From assembly GCA_026985555.1 (NCBI GenBank), contig JALSQF010000003.1, positions 128,605 to 171,877 on the forward strand: a stretch of 43,273 nucleotides of DNA, in the 5' to 3' direction. The stretch's first letter is position 1. Every line of letters starts with the position of its first letter. The stretch comes from Candidatus Moraniibacteriota bacterium (GTDB taxonomy: Bacteria > Patescibacteriota > Minisyncoccia > Moranbacterales > UBA9337). Both the position numbers and the translations under genes were made by a program. The notes beneath the pieces were generated by a model. That model was not told the DNA's origin. It was given only the letters and a program-made list of their open reading frames with translations, and made no database searches. Below are positions 5,553-29,448 of this stretch, in pieces.

Positions 5553-5751
5553 AAATGGATATTTAAATAGCCAGAAGGAAAAATACTTTTTAAAAATTTA
5601 AAAATATTTTTTGAATTTAAACTTATTGGTTTAAAAATATATAAAATATTTAGAAAATAGAATTAGAAAAAACTATAAATTAAAGAAAAGACTATTAAAG
5701 GAAGTTAATTGTATATCATTTTTTAAAAGTTTGAATAGAGTTTTAGATGAA
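5553..5751. repeat. Dispersed intergenic element copy A: right half (24 bp) of the 48-bp palindrome plus AT-rich tail
   Basis: AAATGGATATTTAAATAGCCAGAA at 5553-5576; tail aligns with 19772-19910 and 20035-20066. Confidence 0.9.
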
Positions 5752-5818: not shown

Positions 5819-5847
5819 TTGACAAAAGTTAAAAATTAATTTACACT
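5819..5847 (+). promoter_or_regulatory. sigma70-type promoter of rpsF operon
   Basis: TTGACA (5819-5824), 17 bp, TACACT (5842-5847). Confidence 0.75.
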
Positions 5848-17570: not shown

Positions 17571-19592
17571 ATGATCAATAAAAAAAGAATATTAATTTTT
17601 GACTTTTGGAAACTGTTAGCTTTATTGTTAATAATTTATACATATTTTGGAGGTGTACAATTAAAAGCTGAAGCCAGGGTTTATTTTACGGAGGGTTCGA
17701 TATCTCCTCAGTGTGGTTCTTGTGATCATCCTAATTATGATTATTTTAAAGAAGTTCATTTTGATTCTCCGTTTCAAGGGCAAATTTTTTATCCTGGTAG
17801 TCCTATACACATCAAAGGTTATATAAAAACAAATGAAAAAGCATCTTATCGTTGCAAAGTAGGGGGTAAGTGGACTTGGGGTAAAGTAACTGGTGCTTTA
17901 TTTAATATGATTTTAGGAAAAGATATAAATGGTGTTAGTAATAATGTTTCCTGTACTACCATATGGGCAACTAAGTGTACCTCTGGTTCTTATCCTCATA
18001 TAGGTATTATAAAAAGAAATGATTATGTTTTAAATTCAGGAGGAGGTAATATTCAACATGTCGGTAACGAAGAATCACATAAAAGTTCCAATGGTCGTAT
18101 ATATTTTGATAAAACTTTTACTATTCCTGTAGATTGGGCTAATAATGATAATAATTCAGAAAAAACAGATTATTTACGAATTTATCCCGTATTTTCAACT
18201 TGTAACAGTCAAGATATTGGAGTAAATATAGGTAGTTTTTATTTACCAATCAATATTAGGCCTAACAAAATTAACGGACAATGTGCTATAGGACATTATT
18301 ATTGTTTAAAAGGAAACTCTATCAATCATCATTACAATTCTTCTTCTAGTACTTATACTTGGCAATGTCAAGGAGTTAATGGAGGAACTACAGCTAGATG
18401 TGTTCAGAGATTAGCTATTAATGGTCGATGCGCCCTTATACATAATCAATGTAATAGGGGTGCTTCACGAGATATTCCTGATACATCAACCCAATGGAGA
18501 TGGCAATGTGTAGGAACAAATGGAGGTTCTAATATTACTTGTTCCGAAGATAAACCAACTTTATCTTTCACTGCTAATCCTAATCCAGTTAATTATAATA
18601 CAGCTTCTAATCTAAGATGGACAACTAGTCATGTGCAAAGTTGTTATGCTTCAGGAGCTTGGCGTGGTTGGAAAAGTAACACCGGAGGAAGCCAATCTAC
18701 AGGTCCTTTAACTTCTAGTAAAACATATTCTTTAGAATGTTGGAATTCTCAAGGAAATAGCACGGGAAGAAAAACGGTTACGGTTAATGTTAATAGAGTC
18801 AATGGTCAATGTGCTTCTAGACATAATCAATGTAATAGGGGTGCTTCTCAAGATATTCCTGATACATCAACTCAATGGAAATGGCAATGTTTAGGAACAA
18901 ATGGAGGTTCTAATATTACTTGTTCCGAAGATAAACCAACTTTATTTTTCACTGCTAATCCTAGTTCAGTTGATTATGGTAAAACTTCTAATTTAAGCTG
19001 GACGACTAGTCATGTGCAAAGTTGTTATGCTTCAGGAGATTGGCGTGGTTGGAAAAGTAACACCGGAGGAAGCCAATCTACAGATTCTTTAACTTCTAGT
19101 AAAACATATTCTTTAGAATGTTGGAATTCTCAAGGAGATAGCACGGGAAGAAAAACGGTTACGGTTAATGTTAATGCAGTCAATGGTGAGTGTAATAATG
19201 AGGATGCAAAAACTTATGATTGTCATGCTACAAGTTTTACCAAAGGAATATTTTGTAATAAAGGAACTCCAAACCCAACTAAACCAATCTTTCCTAATAA
19301 AGGAACTTCTACTACTTGGCAATGCTTAGGATTAAATGGAGGTAATAATGATACTTGTACAGCTTCTGTGCAAGCAATAACTAGTGGTAAATGTGGTTCA
19401 GCTAACGGACAAAGTTTTTATACTAGACCAACTTCAAATTTGTGTAATAATGGTACGCCTTCCACTTTAAATTATAATAGTAACACTTCTAAATGGACAT
19501 GGACATGTTCTGGCAATTGCAAAACTTCCGTTAACTGTTCAGCTAACAAAAAAGAACAAAAAACTGAAGACTGGACAGAAGTAGCCCCTTAA
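17571..19592 (+). CDS. Secreted Cys-rich repeat protein (adhesin-like); ends EDWTEVAP
   Basis: Signal peptide ending AEA; repeated NGxC...W.WQC.G.NGG...C modules alternating with P.L.FTANP..V.Y...S.L.W.....SC Ig-like modules. Confidence 0.8.
   Translation: MINKKRILIFDFWKLLALLLIIYTYFGGVQLKAEARVYFTEGSISPQCGSCDHPNYDYFKEVHFDSPFQGQIFYPGSPIHIKGYIKTNEKASYRCKVGGKWTWGKVTGALFNMILGKDINGVSNNVSCTTIWATKCTSGSYPHIGIIKRNDYVLNSGGGNIQHVGNEESHKSSNGRIYFDKTFTIPVDWANNDNNSEKTDYLRIYPVFSTCNSQDIGVNIGSFYLPINIRPNKINGQCAIGHYYCLKGNSINHHYNSSSSTYTWQCQGVNGGTTARCVQRLAINGRCALIHNQCNRGASRDIPDTSTQWRWQCVGTNGGSNITCSEDKPTLSFTANPNPVNYNTASNLRWTTSHVQSCYASGAWRGWKSNTGGSQSTGPLTSSKTYSLECWNSQGNSTGRKTVTVNVNRVNGQCASRHNQCNRGASQDIPDTSTQWKWQCLGTNGGSNITCSEDKPTLFFTANPSSVDYGKTSNLSWTTSHVQSCYASGDWRGWKSNTGGSQSTDSLTSSKTYSLECWNSQGDSTGRKTVTVNVNAVNGECNNEDAKTYDCHATSFTKGIFCNKGTPNPTKPIFPNKGTSTTWQCLGLNGGNNDTCTASVQAITSGKCGSANGQSFYTRPTSNLCNNGTPSTLNYNSNTSKWTWTCSGNCKTSVNCSANKKEQKTEDWTEVAP
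18420..19181 (+). repeat. Intragenic tandem duplication, 2 x 381 bp (127 aa)
   Basis: AATGGT recurs at 18420, 18801 and 19182 with near-identical units between. Confidence 0.92.
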
Positions 19593-19610: not shown

Positions 19611-19646
19611 AAAAAACCTGATTTAATTAAAAAATCAGGTTTTTTT
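19611..19646 (+). terminator. Rho-independent terminator
   Basis: AAAAAACCTGATTT, loop, AAATCAGGTTTTTT. Confidence 0.85.
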
Positions 19647-19723: not shown

Positions 19724-20066
19724 TTCTGGCTATTTAAATATCCATTTAAATGGATATTTAAATAGCCAGAAGGAAAAATAGGTTTTGAAAAATTTAAAAA
19801 TATTTTTGAATTTAAACTTGTTGGTTAAAAAATATATAAAATATTTAGAAAATAGAATTAGAAAAAACTATAAATTGAAAAAATCATTAAAGAAAGTTAG
19901 TTATATATCACTTACAATTTATAAAACCTTTAACTTAATTGAATTCAAAAAATTAGTTTAATAATTAAATAAAAACAACAAAAACATTAAAAAACTTTAA
20001 TTAAAAATGAAAAAACAATTAAAAGGTAGCTCTGTTTTTAAAAAATTTGAAAGGGTTTTAGATGAA
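19724..20066. repeat. Dispersed intergenic element copy B: full 48-bp palindrome (19724-19771) plus AT-rich tail
   Basis: TTCTGGCTATTTAAATATCCATTT|AAATGGATATTTAAATAGCCAGAA; tail matches 5577-5751 with ~124 bp extra (19911-20034). Confidence 0.92.
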
Positions 20067-20161: not shown

Positions 20162-20189
20162 TTGACATTTAAACGGAGTTTATTATACT
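20162..20189 (+). promoter_or_regulatory. sigma70-type promoter
   Basis: TTGACA, 16 bp, TATACT. Confidence 0.6.
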
Positions 20190-20218: not shown

Positions 20219-21496
20219 ATGGATACTTTTCAATTCTTGAAATGGGGGCAAGAAAAGTTAAAATTAAAACTAATAGAAAGGTTAAGCGCTATTAGTAAAC
20301 AAACTAATACGTTAAAATATAAACGTTTCAATTTTAAAAATCTTCAAAAAAAGATTTATCAAATTCAACAACAAATAGCTAACTTTATCAAGAAACGCAG
20401 AACAATTAAATTGTTACATTTGTGGCAAAATTATGCAGCTATGGCAGTAGTTTTTTCTAGCTCTCTTCTAGTTATAACTACTAATACAACAGCGCAAAAT
20501 AGTTCTAGCGGTTTTTTATTTGGATATTGGAAATCAAAAGATGATAAAACAATTTTTTCTCAAAAAAAAGTATTGTCTAGTGATAAAGATAATTTAGCAG
20601 TAATGCCTTTAGCTAAGGCTAATTTAGCTGTTAATGTAGAAAATTTAGAAAGTTTAGAAAAAAATGAAAATCAAGAATCTAATATGGTAATTTCTTCCCA
20701 ACAAGGTTATATGCTAGCTAGCATGAACAAGGGAATGATAATGAAGGATCCTCAAGAAGGAGAAGGGGTAAAAATATACGAAGTGAAAAAAGGAGATACA
20801 GTGGGGAAAATTGCTCAAAATTTTCATGTTACAGTCAATACTATTTTGTGGGCTAATGATATTGAGAATATTAATTCTATTAAACCAGGTGATAAATTAT
20901 TTATTTTACCAGTGGCAGGTTTAATTCATACAGTAAAACAAGGAGAAACTCTAGATAAAATTGCTAAAAAATATAAGGCTAATAAAGATAGAATTATTGC
21001 TTTCAACGACTTACCTGCTAATGGGGAAATTAAAAAAGGAGAAGAAATTATTATTCCTGATGGGCAAAAGGAAACGCCTAAACCAAAAAATAATAACAAT
21101 CGTTTTGGAATTATGCGTCGTTCCTATGCTACTCCTAGCGGTGGAGTAACACGTGTTTCTGGTTGGAAAAAATTAGAGGGTAAGGCTGGCAAGGGTCATC
21201 GCTTTCCTTATGGATATTGCACTTGGTATGTGGCTCAAAAACGTTATGTTCCTTGGGGAGGTAATGCAGGAACATGGCTTTATCATGCTAAGGCCTTAGG
21301 TTACAAGGTGGGAAGAACTCCTCGTAAAGGTGCTATTATGGTAACTTCTGAATCTTGGTGGGGGCATGTGGCTATTGTAGAAAAAGTAAATAAAAAAACC
21401 ATTACGGTTTCTGAAATGAACAGAATAGGATGGGGAAAAGTAAGCAGAAGAACACTTCCTATTAAAAGTCGGGTAATTAAAGGATTTATATATTAA
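20219..21496 (+). CDS. LysM x2 plus CHAP domain peptidoglycan hydrolase
   Basis: YEVKKGDT..KIA and HTVKQGETL.KIA LysM domains; GYCTWYV, WGGNA..W, GHVAIVE, VSEMN CHAP motifs. Confidence 0.92.
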   Translation: MDTFQFLKWGQEKLKLKLIERLSAISKQTNTLKYKRFNFKNLQKKIYQIQQQIANFIKKRRTIKLLHLWQNYAAMAVVFSSSLLVITTNTTAQNSSSGFLFGYWKSKDDKTIFSQKKVLSSDKDNLAVMPLAKANLAVNVENLESLEKNENQESNMVISSQQGYMLASMNKGMIMKDPQEGEGVKIYEVKKGDTVGKIAQNFHVTVNTILWANDIENINSIKPGDKLFILPVAGLIHTVKQGETLDKIAKKYKANKDRIIAFNDLPANGEIKKGEEIIIPDGQKETPKPKNNNNRFGIMRRSYATPSGGVTRVSGWKKLEGKAGKGHRFPYGYCTWYVAQKRYVPWGGNAGTWLYHAKALGYKVGRTPRKGAIMVTSESWWGHVAIVEKVNKKTITVSEMNRIGWGKVSRRTLPIKSRVIKGFIY

Positions 21497-27890: not shown

Positions 27891-28394
27891 TTATTTAGAA
27901 TTAGTATAATCAATAAATAGTTTTCCTTGCAAATGATCAACTTCATGTTGGATTATTCTAGCTAGCATTCCTTCAGCCATTAATTTTTTTCTTTTTCCTG
28001 AAACGGTTAAATATTGAAGTGATATTTTATTTGATCTTTTTACATTTAAAAATTTTCCAGGAAAACTAAGACAACCTTCTTCGGCTACGTTTTTTTCTTG
28101 GGAAAAAAACGTAATTTTAGGATTTATAAGAATATAAATTTTATTTTGAAAATCTATCACACATAAATTTTTGGCCTGATTAATCTGAGGAGCAGCTAAA
28201 CCAAGCCCGTTGTTATTTTTCATTGTGATTAACATACTCTGAATAAGTTGTTGAATTTCAGGTTTAGTAGGATCTTTAATATCTTCAGTTTTTTGGCGTA
28301 AAATAGGATGTGGATAAATGACGATAGGTAAAGATTGTTTTATTTTTATTGAAAAAATATTTGAATTATGATTATTAGTAAAAAAGTTATCCAT
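27891..28394 (-). CDS. def: Peptide deformylase
   Basis: GLGLAAPQI, EGCLS, QHEVDHLQG. Confidence 0.97.
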   Translation of the reverse strand: MDNFFTNNHNSNIFSIKIKQSLPIVIYPHPILRQKTEDIKDPTKPEIQQLIQSMLITMKNNNGLGLAAPQINQAKNLCVIDFQNKIYILINPKITFFSQEKNVAEEGCLSFPGKFLNVKRSNKISLQYLTVSGKRKKLMAEGMLARIIQHEVDHLQGKLFIDYTNSK

Positions 28395-28498: not shown

Positions 28499-28546
28499 TT
28501 CTGGCTATTTAAATATCCATTTAAATGGATATTTAAATAGCCAGAA
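28499..28546. repeat. Dispersed element copy C: 48-bp perfect palindrome between divergent def and tpiA
   Basis: Identical to 19724-19771. Confidence 0.95.
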
Positions 28547-28659
28547 AGTATTTTTAAATTTTTAAACTTAATTTTTTTAAATTTTTTTCAAGAAAAATTT
28601 TTAAAATATGATGTTAGTTGGAAATTTAAATTAAAATATGTTATATTAAATTTAAATGT

Positions 28660-29448
28660 ATGTTATTAAAAGATAATAAAAAAATTATCATAGCCAACTT
28701 GAAAATGAATATCCTCTCTCTTAGAGAAAGAGATTTGTTTTGGTCATCATTAACTAAAGAAAGTAAGCTAACAAAAAAACAAATTAAAAATAAAACAGAG
28801 GTTATTATCTGTCCCCCATCTATTTATTTAGAAAGTTTCGTAAAACGATTTAAAAAAAATCAGTGGATTAATATAGGAGCACAAAATATTCATTGGGAGA
28901 AAAAAGGGGCTTTTACAGGAGAAATTTCAGTTCCTATGCTTAAGGGTTTGGACATAAAATGGAGCATAATTGGTCATAGTGAAAGAAGAAAATATTTTTG
29001 TGAGACAGATGAAATAGTTAATCAAAAAATATTAATAGCTTTAAAAAACGATATTTTGCCTATTTTTTGCACAGGAGAAACAGCGAAAGAAAAAGAAAAA
29101 GGAAAAAGAAAAGAAGTTTTAACTAATCAAATAATAAAAGGATTAAATCAAGTTAGTAAAGCTAGAGTAGAGAAAATAATTTTTGCCTATGAGCCAGTTT
29201 GGGCGATTGGCACAGGAGAAACACCTTCTGCAGACGACATATTAGAAGCGCGTTTGTTGATTAAAAAAATAATAGCTAAAAAATACAGTCTTAAAATAGC
29301 TGAAAAAATAAAAATAATTTATGGAGGTTCAGTTGTTTCTAAAAATGCTAACCAAGTAATTCTAAAAAGCCAAATGGACGGTGCTTTGGTAGGAGGAGCA
29401 AGCCTTTATCCTAAAGAATTTTTTAAAATAATTGCAAAGATAGTTTAA
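28660..29448 (+). CDS. tpiA: Triosephosphate isomerase
   Basis: NLKMN, GAFTGEIS, IIGHSERR, AYEPVWAIGTG, YGGSV, LVGGASL. Confidence 0.98.
   Translation: MLLKDNKKIIIANLKMNILSLRERDLFWSSLTKESKLTKKQIKNKTEVIICPPSIYLESFVKRFKKNQWINIGAQNIHWEKKGAFTGEISVPMLKGLDIKWSIIGHSERRKYFCETDEIVNQKILIALKNDILPIFCTGETAKEKEKGKRKEVLTNQIIKGLNQVSKARVEKIIFAYEPVWAIGTGETPSADDILEARLLIKKIIAKKYSLKIAEKIKIIYGGSVVSKNANQVILKSQMDGALVGGASLYPKEFFKIIAKIV

Follow-up and report, generated by a model that had tools for sequence, protein, structure and literature searches.

The stretch of DNA analysed here (43,273 nucleotides, referred to as the window) corresponds to C3:128605-171877, that is, to positions on contig C3 of a metagenome bin of 740,893 bp in 11 contigs with ~28% guanine plus cytosine (GC) and 94.9% completeness. 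The genome is Parcubacteria-like with a size of ~0.75-0.8 Mb, and the real open reading frames (ORFs) of the window contain no in-frame TGA, which indicates the standard bacterial code. The element under study is a 48-bp palindrome, henceforth referred to as the 48-mer. It is present in full at 19724-19771, between a 673-amino-acid (aa) ORF (17571-19592) and a LysM/CHAP gene (20219-21496), and again at 28499-28546, in the centre of the divergent spacer between def (27891-28394, minus strand) and tpiA (28660-29448), 104 bp from the former and 113 bp from the latter. Both copies are intergenic, as the initial annotation of this DNA had stated. A half copy that was absent from that annotation lies at 5553-5576, in the spacer between a 292-aa ORF and rpsF-ssb.

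The 48-mer consists of TTCTGGCTATTTAAATATCCATTT abutting its own reverse complement and forms a perfect palindrome with no loop. The initial annotation had described an identical, loopless sequence at the two window sites, carrying three ATTTAAAT octamers at a 12-bp period and, in each 24-nt half, an 18-bp palindrome with one mismatched pair, TGGCTATTTAAATATCCA; all of these features were confirmed by reading the sequence. At up to 3 mismatches the window contains 5 half-sites, compared with 0 in 100 dinucleotide shuffles. The full-length form can be written as modules A, B, B' and A', of which the half copy retains only B' and A', and the family as a whole follows the modular pattern TTCTGGCT-(ATTTAAAT-NNNN)n-ATTTAAAT-AGCCAGAA, where n is 2 in the 48-bp form, 1 in a 36-bp form and 0 in a 24-bp form. 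These variants differ by whole 12-bp modules only and all are still hairpins, with a slightly different outer arm in the 24-mer copy. The inner module of the 36-mers has one orientation in 3 copies and the other orientation in 5, and loss of one 12-bp module between octamers gives exactly these two types. As single-stranded DNA, the 48-mer and both 36-mer types fold into stems of 22 bp and 16 bp, respectively, each closed by a 4-nt loop. The corresponding DNA folding free energies are -22.1 kcal/mol for the 48-mer (z of -9.1 against shuffles), -19.4 kcal/mol for the 36-mer and -7.1 kcal/mol for the 24-mer.

A genome-wide search returned 39 exact half-sites; no further site was added at 1-3 mismatches, and the number of substitutions was 0. 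The bin holds 25 copies (15 48-mers, 8 36-mers, one 24-mer and one half copy), and 5 further copies (3 full, 2 36-mers) were found on three unbinned contigs of 28.6, 20.7 and 8.1 kb from the same metagenome, for a total of 30. Among the genome's 16-mer repeats with at least 3 G or C, this family ranks first; another repeat, CTCTCCCGCATCGCCCAAGCCCAAGCCC, was observed as a GC-rich 16-mer series with 8-9 occurrences in this 28% GC genome. An exact 24-mer search of a metagenome collection returned contigs of one metagenome only, one of which is identical to contig C8, and the exact 24-mer was absent from a species-representative genome collection and from viral contigs. Within the collections searched, the repeat is a unique marker of this lineage. 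A 14-mer search allowing at most 1 mismatch gave 24+25 matches on the two strands of the genome versus 0-2 per strand in each of 40 family or order relatives, with 0-4 for a reversed-pattern control. The dispersed repeat proposed in the initial annotation is thus real: copies are numerous in the genome and none stands above background in relatives, rather than the two window copies being the only ones and fixed in relatives.

The loci of relatives gave the same picture. In 13 family relatives the region upstream of 16S has no long palindrome; around tpiA, 21 relatives gave singleton palindromes only and none that was comparable; and two long palindromes that do occur in relatives are single-copy. 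The family relatives are distant, with TpiA 44-56% identical and the 16S 5' end at most 91% identical, and the closest named TpiA relative, from a Parcubacteria-group metagenome-assembled genome, is 47% identical; at such distances orthologous "empty sites" cannot be aligned. In three relatives of one genus (G007, G016 and G020), the same 22-24-bp perfect palindrome, CTTTTGTTCGCTAGCGAACAAAAG, was observed ~1.25 kb beyond the 16S 5' end (L051:2745-2768, L060:440-463 and L062:2615-2636), where it may be inserted within the 16S gene or immediately past it. The literature searches returned no description of a repeat like the 48-mer in Patescibacteria, as far as titles and abstracts show. The words Patescibacteria, candidate phyla and RAYT are absent from the available text of RepRanger (PMC12306157), whose supplementary files may list repeat families.

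All 25 binned copies lie outside a greedy ORF map that covers 85-92% of the large contigs; the one 69-aa ORF that overlaps a copy is probably spurious. The spacers that contain copies are tandem in 16 cases, divergent in 8 and convergent in 1, compared with 171/45/22 among all spacers of at least 100 bp. An enrichment upstream of genes was considered and rejected, as the two distributions are not clearly different. Two of the copies on unbinned contigs also lie between divergent genes. Copies in tandem spacers tend to sit closer to the 3' end of the upstream gene (13 of 15; median 56 versus 190 bp, binomial p = 0.007), and by eye at least 5 copies directly follow an ordinary hairpin and T-run. 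The resulting layout is stop codon, often a terminator, palindrome, an AT-rich spacer of variable length, promoter and gene. Moving outward from the palindrome, 59 of 60 flanks begin with a purine, and A/G-rich bases come next. Pyrimidines predominate in the left flank and purines in the right, a symmetric and not a direct arrangement.

The three window copies illustrate this layout. A terminator-like A-run/stem/T-run hairpin of the ordinary type follows the 673-aa ORF at 19611-19645, 79 bp before the palindrome, and the half copy comes directly after the hairpin and T-run of its upstream ORF. The best sigma-70-like promoters of the downstream genes are TTGACA-16-TATACT for the LysM/CHAP gene (20162-20189, plus strand), 390 bp downstream of the palindrome, and TTGACA-17-TACACT for rpsF (5819-5847, plus strand), 242 bp downstream of the half copy. 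For tpiA, a promoter-like site, TTGGAA-18-TATATT with TG before the second hexamer, lies at 28618-28647 (plus strand), 71 bp downstream of the palindrome. Beyond many other copies of the genome the best promoter-like site is found at 47-98 bp.

Homology between the flanks of different copies starts at base 1-10 from the palindrome edge. To the right of the palindrome, the copies at rpsF, LysM and 16S have 145-165 bp in common (81-89% identity). In the window, this flank repeat occupies 19772-19913 (plus strand), starting at the palindrome edge, with a second copy at 5577-5721 (plus strand) beside the half palindrome; identity to the former is 89% for the latter and 83% for the region downstream of the 16S-upstream copy (C7:71211-71375). 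The copy at C11:35548 shares the first 38 bp of the same flank at 95%. Elsewhere, the left flanks of C10:58568 and C10:59480 contain a common terminator (50 bp at 84%), C10:45958 and C10:58568 share 178 bp at 67%, and the right flank of C10:63338 matches the left flank of C3:103772, that is, the opposite side of the latter palindrome. These flank repeats were found nowhere else in the genome. The palindromes themselves are 100% identical while the co-duplicated flanks have diverged by 11-19%. At that divergence, 48 neutral positions copied together with the flank, a history suggested by the shared edge, would rarely stay identical, which suggests selection or conversion acting on the palindrome.

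The symmetry of the family also reaches beyond the repeat. Copy-specific symmetric extensions of 4-9 bp were observed at 8 of the 30 copies, compared with 4.7% of mismatched left/right flank pairs, and 0 of 10,000 permutations reached 8. The half copy in the window ends ~1-3 bp from the dyad centre. Genome-wide, another 51 perfect hairpins, with arm lengths of 12-26 bp, were found, mostly of the A-run/GC stem/T-run type (for example C8:17428-17481 and C10:229366-229411); they have the shape of bidirectional terminators and are unusually long and perfect. With the family included, perfect hairpins number 10 per 100 kb; across the 148 kb of loci taken from relatives the figure is 4.7 per 100 kb. 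It is established that template switching can make quasi-palindromes perfect and extend them (described in the available portions of PMC7202029 and PMC8794818). The centre-cut half copy, the symmetric extensions and the further perfect hairpins may be the footprint of such template switching, and the edge-starting flank homology combined with palindrome identity points to repair of hairpin breaks from other copies.

The genome was also searched for enzymes that could act on the repeat. SbcCD is the main bacterial nuclease that attacks DNA hairpins, according to the accessible part of PMC4245961. Neither SbcD nor SbcC was found in the 94.9%-complete bin, so that the main hairpin-attacking nuclease of this genome appears to be missing. 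PF01797, the family of the Y1 HUH transposases of repetitive extragenic palindromic (REP) sequences and of IS200 (REP-associated tyrosine transposases, RAYTs), gave 0 matches in the genome, with a control that was positive in 6 of 14 reference genomes. Likewise, no rve, DDE_Tnp_1, TnpB-type zinc ribbon, IS110 or DDE_3 match was obtained in the bin, with positive reference controls; other transposase families were not included in the search. The initial annotation had noted that the window encodes no cognate enzyme, and this holds genome-wide among the families searched.

With moderate confidence, we interpret the 48-mer as the full-length member of a lineage-specific, broadly REP-like family of non-coding hairpin/cruciform repeats that is kept identical by conversion or selection. 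The palindrome would fold into hairpins during replication or extrude as a cruciform, and we propose that such structures are tolerated because SbcCD is not detectable in this genome. Slippage between the 12-bp modules would generate the 36- and 24-bp forms, and template switching over the hairpin would spread symmetry into the flanks. Other copies may serve as templates when hairpin breaks are mended through ectopic recombination or gene conversion, which would maintain identity and move one-sided flank DNA between loci. For the initial spread to ~30 loci, a transposase that is now lost or unbinned is the simplest guess. Copies would persist only where they are tolerated, which is the zone from a terminator to the promoter that follows it or the space separating back-to-back promoters. 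There the repeat may serve the host as a barrier, as a sink for supercoils or as a 3' hairpin of RNA.

Several observations weigh against this interpretation. Neither target-site duplications nor a cognate enzyme were found to account for de novo insertion, and the enzyme absences themselves mean "not found" in a 94.9%-complete metagenome bin. Neutral or selfish families usually show a spectrum of decay, and no decayed copies are present here; strong selection on every base, as in a protein-recognised site, could produce the same result. Gene conversion is suggested by the flank patterns, for which site-specific insertion beside an older repeat would be an alternative. The difference in hairpin density is based on small samples of relatives.

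The genes next to the copies are diverse. RNA genes identified with Rfam and ARAGORN place copies 659 bp upstream of 16S, 537 bp upstream of 23S, 190 bp upstream of two tRNA-Gly genes, 65 bp upstream of tRNA-Met and 175 bp downstream of tRNA-Asn. The 16S (C7:71870 onward, L017) and 23S (C3:112585 onward, L013) genes are unlinked and on separate contigs, and a 48-mer lies 540-660 bp upstream of each. Rfam searches of 20 other copy loci gave rRNA and tRNA matches only, and the Rfam scan of the window gave no family at gathering score. Protein-coding neighbours include rpsF, EF-Tu (tuf), tpiA/def, uvrD, thrS, glycosyltransferases, a DHH protein, a methyltransferase, a GTPase, a glutaredoxin and many genes without a family; in two of the neighbour-ORF scans, 9 of 20 ORFs had none. 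A regulon was rejected, given that 30 neighbour ORFs scanned in Pfam or NCBIfam, and 10 more from the unbinned contigs, showed no common function. The LysM/CHAP protein of the window (20219-21496, 425 aa) has LysM-type peptidoglycan-binding families in the middle of the protein and a hydrolase part of PcsB/amidase families at the C-terminus, which shows that a cell wall is maintained by this small genome.

A possible, if unlikely, alternative is that the palindrome is the recognition site of a lineage-specific DNA-binding protein (nucleoid-associated, insulator or global regulator) at transcription-unit boundaries, with dimers bound to the TGGCTATTTAAATATCCA units or the ATTTAAAT boxes. Dimeric binders typically have sites of nested dyad symmetry, cooperative repressors such as MetJ and Fur are known to use varying numbers of tandem boxes, and 48 of 48 positions are invariant against the 11-19% divergence of the co-duplicated flanks. 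The positions of the copies fit as well. At least one gene 5' end is faced by 24 of the 25 copies, those in divergent spacers are roughly central at ~100 bp from both starts (104/113, 103/98 and 125/92 bp), strong promoters are often 47-80 bp from the palindrome edge, and 16S, 23S, tRNA-Gly, tRNA-Met, rpsF and tuf all have a copy upstream. However, facing a 5' end is the background situation (216 of 238 spacers of at least 100 bp are tandem or divergent), and the divergent:convergent ratio of 8:1 is not clearly different from 45:22. None of the features of an operator or regulon, that is, degenerate sites, a fixed promoter distance, linked genes or conservation in relatives, was found. Searches with four sub-site patterns at 0-1 mismatch gave 0 matches to degenerate or stand-alone sub-sites, the best promoter is anywhere from 47 to 390 bp away, neighbouring genes share no common pathway, and the family was not found in relatives. 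Furthermore, the spacing of the outer half-sites shifts by 12 bp among variants, and no candidate protein was identified. The multimeric protein-binding site suggested by the initial annotation therefore retains the invariance of all 48 positions in its favour and is disfavoured by the lack of degenerate sites, the variable half-site spacing and promoter distance, and the unrelated genes.

A more specific form of this alternative, which we consider rather doubtful, would make the palindromes the boundary elements of a minimal chromosome, read as duplex or cruciform by a lineage-specific protein. They would mark and insulate transcription units, those of 16S, 23S, tRNAs, rpsF and tuf included, with selection on that recognition and not recent mobility keeping them identical. 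One candidate partner would be the ORFan at C10:58726-59436, a very basic, all-helical protein of 236 aa with 36-mers on both sides (C10:58568-59515; L021:969-1916). It is the only gene bracketed by copies, which are 122 bp and 43 bp away, and each copy is preceded by a near-duplicate terminator hairpin. The protein has no Pfam family, and its sole match is a 96%-identical protein of 220 aa. Structure comparison in the Atlas gave no usable match (template modelling score at most 0.43), and the AlphaFold model (pLDDT 60, pTM 0.36) was too poor to serve as a fold query. The gene could be a cassette inserted by palindrome recombination or could encode a candidate partner protein.

Another explanation, which appears unlikely, places the function at the RNA level, with the hairpin acting at the 3' end of upstream transcripts as a terminator, a stabiliser or an RNase III site, in the manner of E. 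coli REPs. Such a role would fit the position of tandem-spacer copies near the upstream stop codon (median 56 bp), among them 5 loci where the palindrome lies 4-25 bp behind the stop with no intervening hairpin. T-runs follow some copies (C7:20913, C10:227049 and C10:63338), and a perfect 22-bp stem is long enough for RNase III. The window copy at 28499 was scored as terminator-like on the plus strand by a pattern scan, where no gene enters from that side. The palindromes resemble intrinsic (bidirectional) terminators in placing a stable hairpin behind stop codons at several loci. Unlike terminators, the stem is normally followed by purines and not by a U-run (59 of 60 flanks), and the genome's ordinary terminators are of a different type, with an A-run, a GC stem and a T-run. 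At least 5 copies stand just behind such an ordinary terminator, as does the window copy at 19724, and 8 of the 25 binned copies and 2 unbinned ones lie between divergent genes, where no gene ends. In addition, RNA structure would explain conservation of pairing and not the observed invariance of the sequence itself, and identity across loci is not a property of terminators.

It is very unlikely that the family is a true REPIN (two inverted REPs forming a hairpin) or a MITE (miniature inverted-repeat transposable element), still mobilised by a RAYT or other transposase encoded on an extrachromosomal element or in the 5% of the genome missing from the assembly or the bin. HUH elements leave no target duplication, and none is seen here; the copies are strictly intergenic and identical, as after a recent burst. 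The bin is 94.9% complete, and three copy-bearing contigs are unbinned. The scanned parts of these contigs (10 ORFs, L031 and L032; L029 and L030 were outside the scan) encode housekeeping functions only, namely ndk, VanW, a phosphoribosyltransferase and an FtsQ-like protein. A REPIN is made up of two REPs in inverted orientation, as described in the available text of PMC3337134 and PMC3116915, and a GTAG or CGTC tetranucleotide is reported at one REP end in the accessible part of PMC3733652. The 48-mer fits this description as far as its layout is concerned: two exact reverse-complement halves of 24 bp, each quasi-palindromic, form one hairpin. By reading, however, it contains no GTAG, CTAC, CGTC or GACG, and the halves have no spacer between them. 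The expected population of singlets and doublets with a cloud of sequence variants was also not seen, as 1 singlet stands against 23 doublet-type copies and one 24-mer, with 0 substitutions among the 39 half-sites. The REPIN architecture and RAYT mobilisation put forward in the initial annotation thus hold for the inverted doublet only. Without a PF01797 match or any of the other searched transposase families in the genome, and without an end tag or variation among copies, the family is not a RAYT-mobilised REPIN. A classical MITE was rejected as well, on the lack of a direct target duplication and of a parent insertion sequence among the families searched.

Recombinases were noted in the course of these searches. 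Two tyrosine recombinases of 310 and 288 aa are encoded in the genome, neither near a palindrome, and we guess that they are Xer-like. An ORF for a serine recombinase (281 aa) directly precedes a 202-aa ORF with a Cys-rich start and a long charged stretch (L092, C3:115682-119119); from sequence, the two together resemble a large serine recombinase that has been split. This locus (C3:117 kb), a few kb beyond the 23S start, is flanked on both sides by GC-rich, tRNA-like repeated stretches and is possibly a remnant of an integrated element. The serine recombinase was rejected as a cognate enzyme, given that nothing ties the gene to the palindromes and none is nearby.

Other candidate functions for a palindromic target were examined. 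A protelomerase system pairs its enzyme gene with a telomere-junction site that occurs once or twice per replicon. Such a target is implausible for the present family, whose 30 sites are internal and have unique flanking sequence on either side; no search aimed at a protelomerase gene was made. A restriction site was rejected for ATTTAAAT, which is not avoided in the genome (296 occurrences versus 192-279 expected). TTCTAGAA, tried as a palindromic target, was uninformative, with 34 occurrences versus 46-59 expected, 4 of them intergenic. The parS consensus is TGTTNCACGTGAAACA, and parS sites cluster near the origin; a parS function was rejected on the lack of similarity between the 48-mer and TGTTNCACGTGAAACA and the absence of the family from the contigs that carry the TGTTCCACGTGGAACA array. 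This tandem array (C1:36840-37110 and C2:1-345) has a period of ~62-63 bp and breaks the assembly where the GC skew changes sign (negative on C1, positive on C2). Its units each contain the perfect 16-bp palindrome TGTTCCACGTGGAACA, with 10 occurrences in the array, and the word TTTTCCACA. We take the former to be parS-like and the latter DnaA-box-like, and the array looks like the replication origin region.

An assembly or amplification fold-back artefact has almost no probability as the source of the palindromes: chimeric fold-back reads can yield perfect loopless palindromes and contigs from three public runs all end inside them, but the copies have unique flanks on both sides at 30 loci, occur as 36- and 24-bp variants and a half copy, and are placed strictly between genes. 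Contig ends of the assembly share exact 127-base overlaps, from which the assembly k-mer is inferred to be longer than the 48-bp repeat, so that each copy would be bridged with unique flanks on both sides; a fold-back origin of the 48-mer is accordingly unlikely. The public-run contigs break at 19750 and 28521, and the left arm 28499-28521 is present in all three. These contigs are assumed to be built from 31-letter words, for which a stop within a longer repeat is to be expected, and they neither bridge nor contradict the palindromes. One run comes from another sample, and its contig differs at 45 letters in 6,361 bases (~0.7%) and stops at the same position, 28521. This recurrence also speaks against an artefact and is weak but consistent evidence that at least the left arm is present at the 28499 locus in a slightly diverged strain. 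The repeat breaks short-k assemblies at predictable points. The exact 127-bp end overlaps were observed between C11/C1, C11/C6, C3/C8 and C4/C8, some of them inverted, and suggest that contigs could be joined, or that the assembly branches, at paralogous glycosyltransferase genes.

Members of the candidate phyla radiation (CPR) are regarded as having streamlined genomes with few repeats and little mobile DNA. The present genome of ~0.75-0.8 Mb carries ~30 exact loopless palindromes with no recognisable transposase or SbcCD. Its loopless 48-bp perfection, the 12-bp modular variants, the ~30 identical copies in a CPR genome and flank patterns that suggest self-homogenising recombination hubs make the family unusual. 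If the recombination-based interpretation is true, natural palindromes would act as self-homogenising hubs that move promoter-upstream DNA between loci; if the palindrome is instead a protein site, it would represent a simple chromosomal boundary system in a minimal cell. Practical consequences are modest.

Among known systems, the closest category is that of REP-like hairpin repeats, with the transposase not found. The family resembles the REPs and REPINs of Pseudomonas and Enterobacteria in being short intergenic palindromes in an inverted quasi-palindromic doublet, tolerated between genes and with no target-site duplication. It differs from them in having no RAYT and no GTAG, zero spacer and zero mismatch between arms, ~30 and not hundreds of copies, no variation between copies, AT-rich and not GC-rich stems, and variants that arise by whole 12-bp modules. 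Correia and NEMIS MITEs are likewise non-coding, lie near promoters and terminators and could alter their context, and the 48-mer formally consists of two terminal inverted repeats as they do. Unlike in those elements, there is nothing between the 24-bp "ends", the flanks are symmetric and not direct, and no parent insertion sequence was found. The CGTC REPs, a REP family without a dedicated transposase, and the Rickettsia palindromic elements are similar to the present family in that no dedicated transposase is found in the host genome, as far as the available text of PMC3733652 describes them. The 48-mer differs from these in lacking the CGTC tag, in never occurring within genes and in having identical copies. 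A further parallel is provided by long palindromes as recombination hotspots, known from E. coli SbcCD work (PMC4245961) and from PMC7202029 and PMC8794818. The systems covered in the accessible parts of these sources are experimental palindromes of hundreds of bp or single natural loci, whereas the present case is a 30-copy family of 48 bp in a genome where SbcCD is undetected. The hotspots are characterised by replication hairpins, breakage at the dyad and symmetry-extending mutations, and the likeness here lies in the centre-cut half copy, the symmetric flank extensions and the one-sided transfer of flanks.

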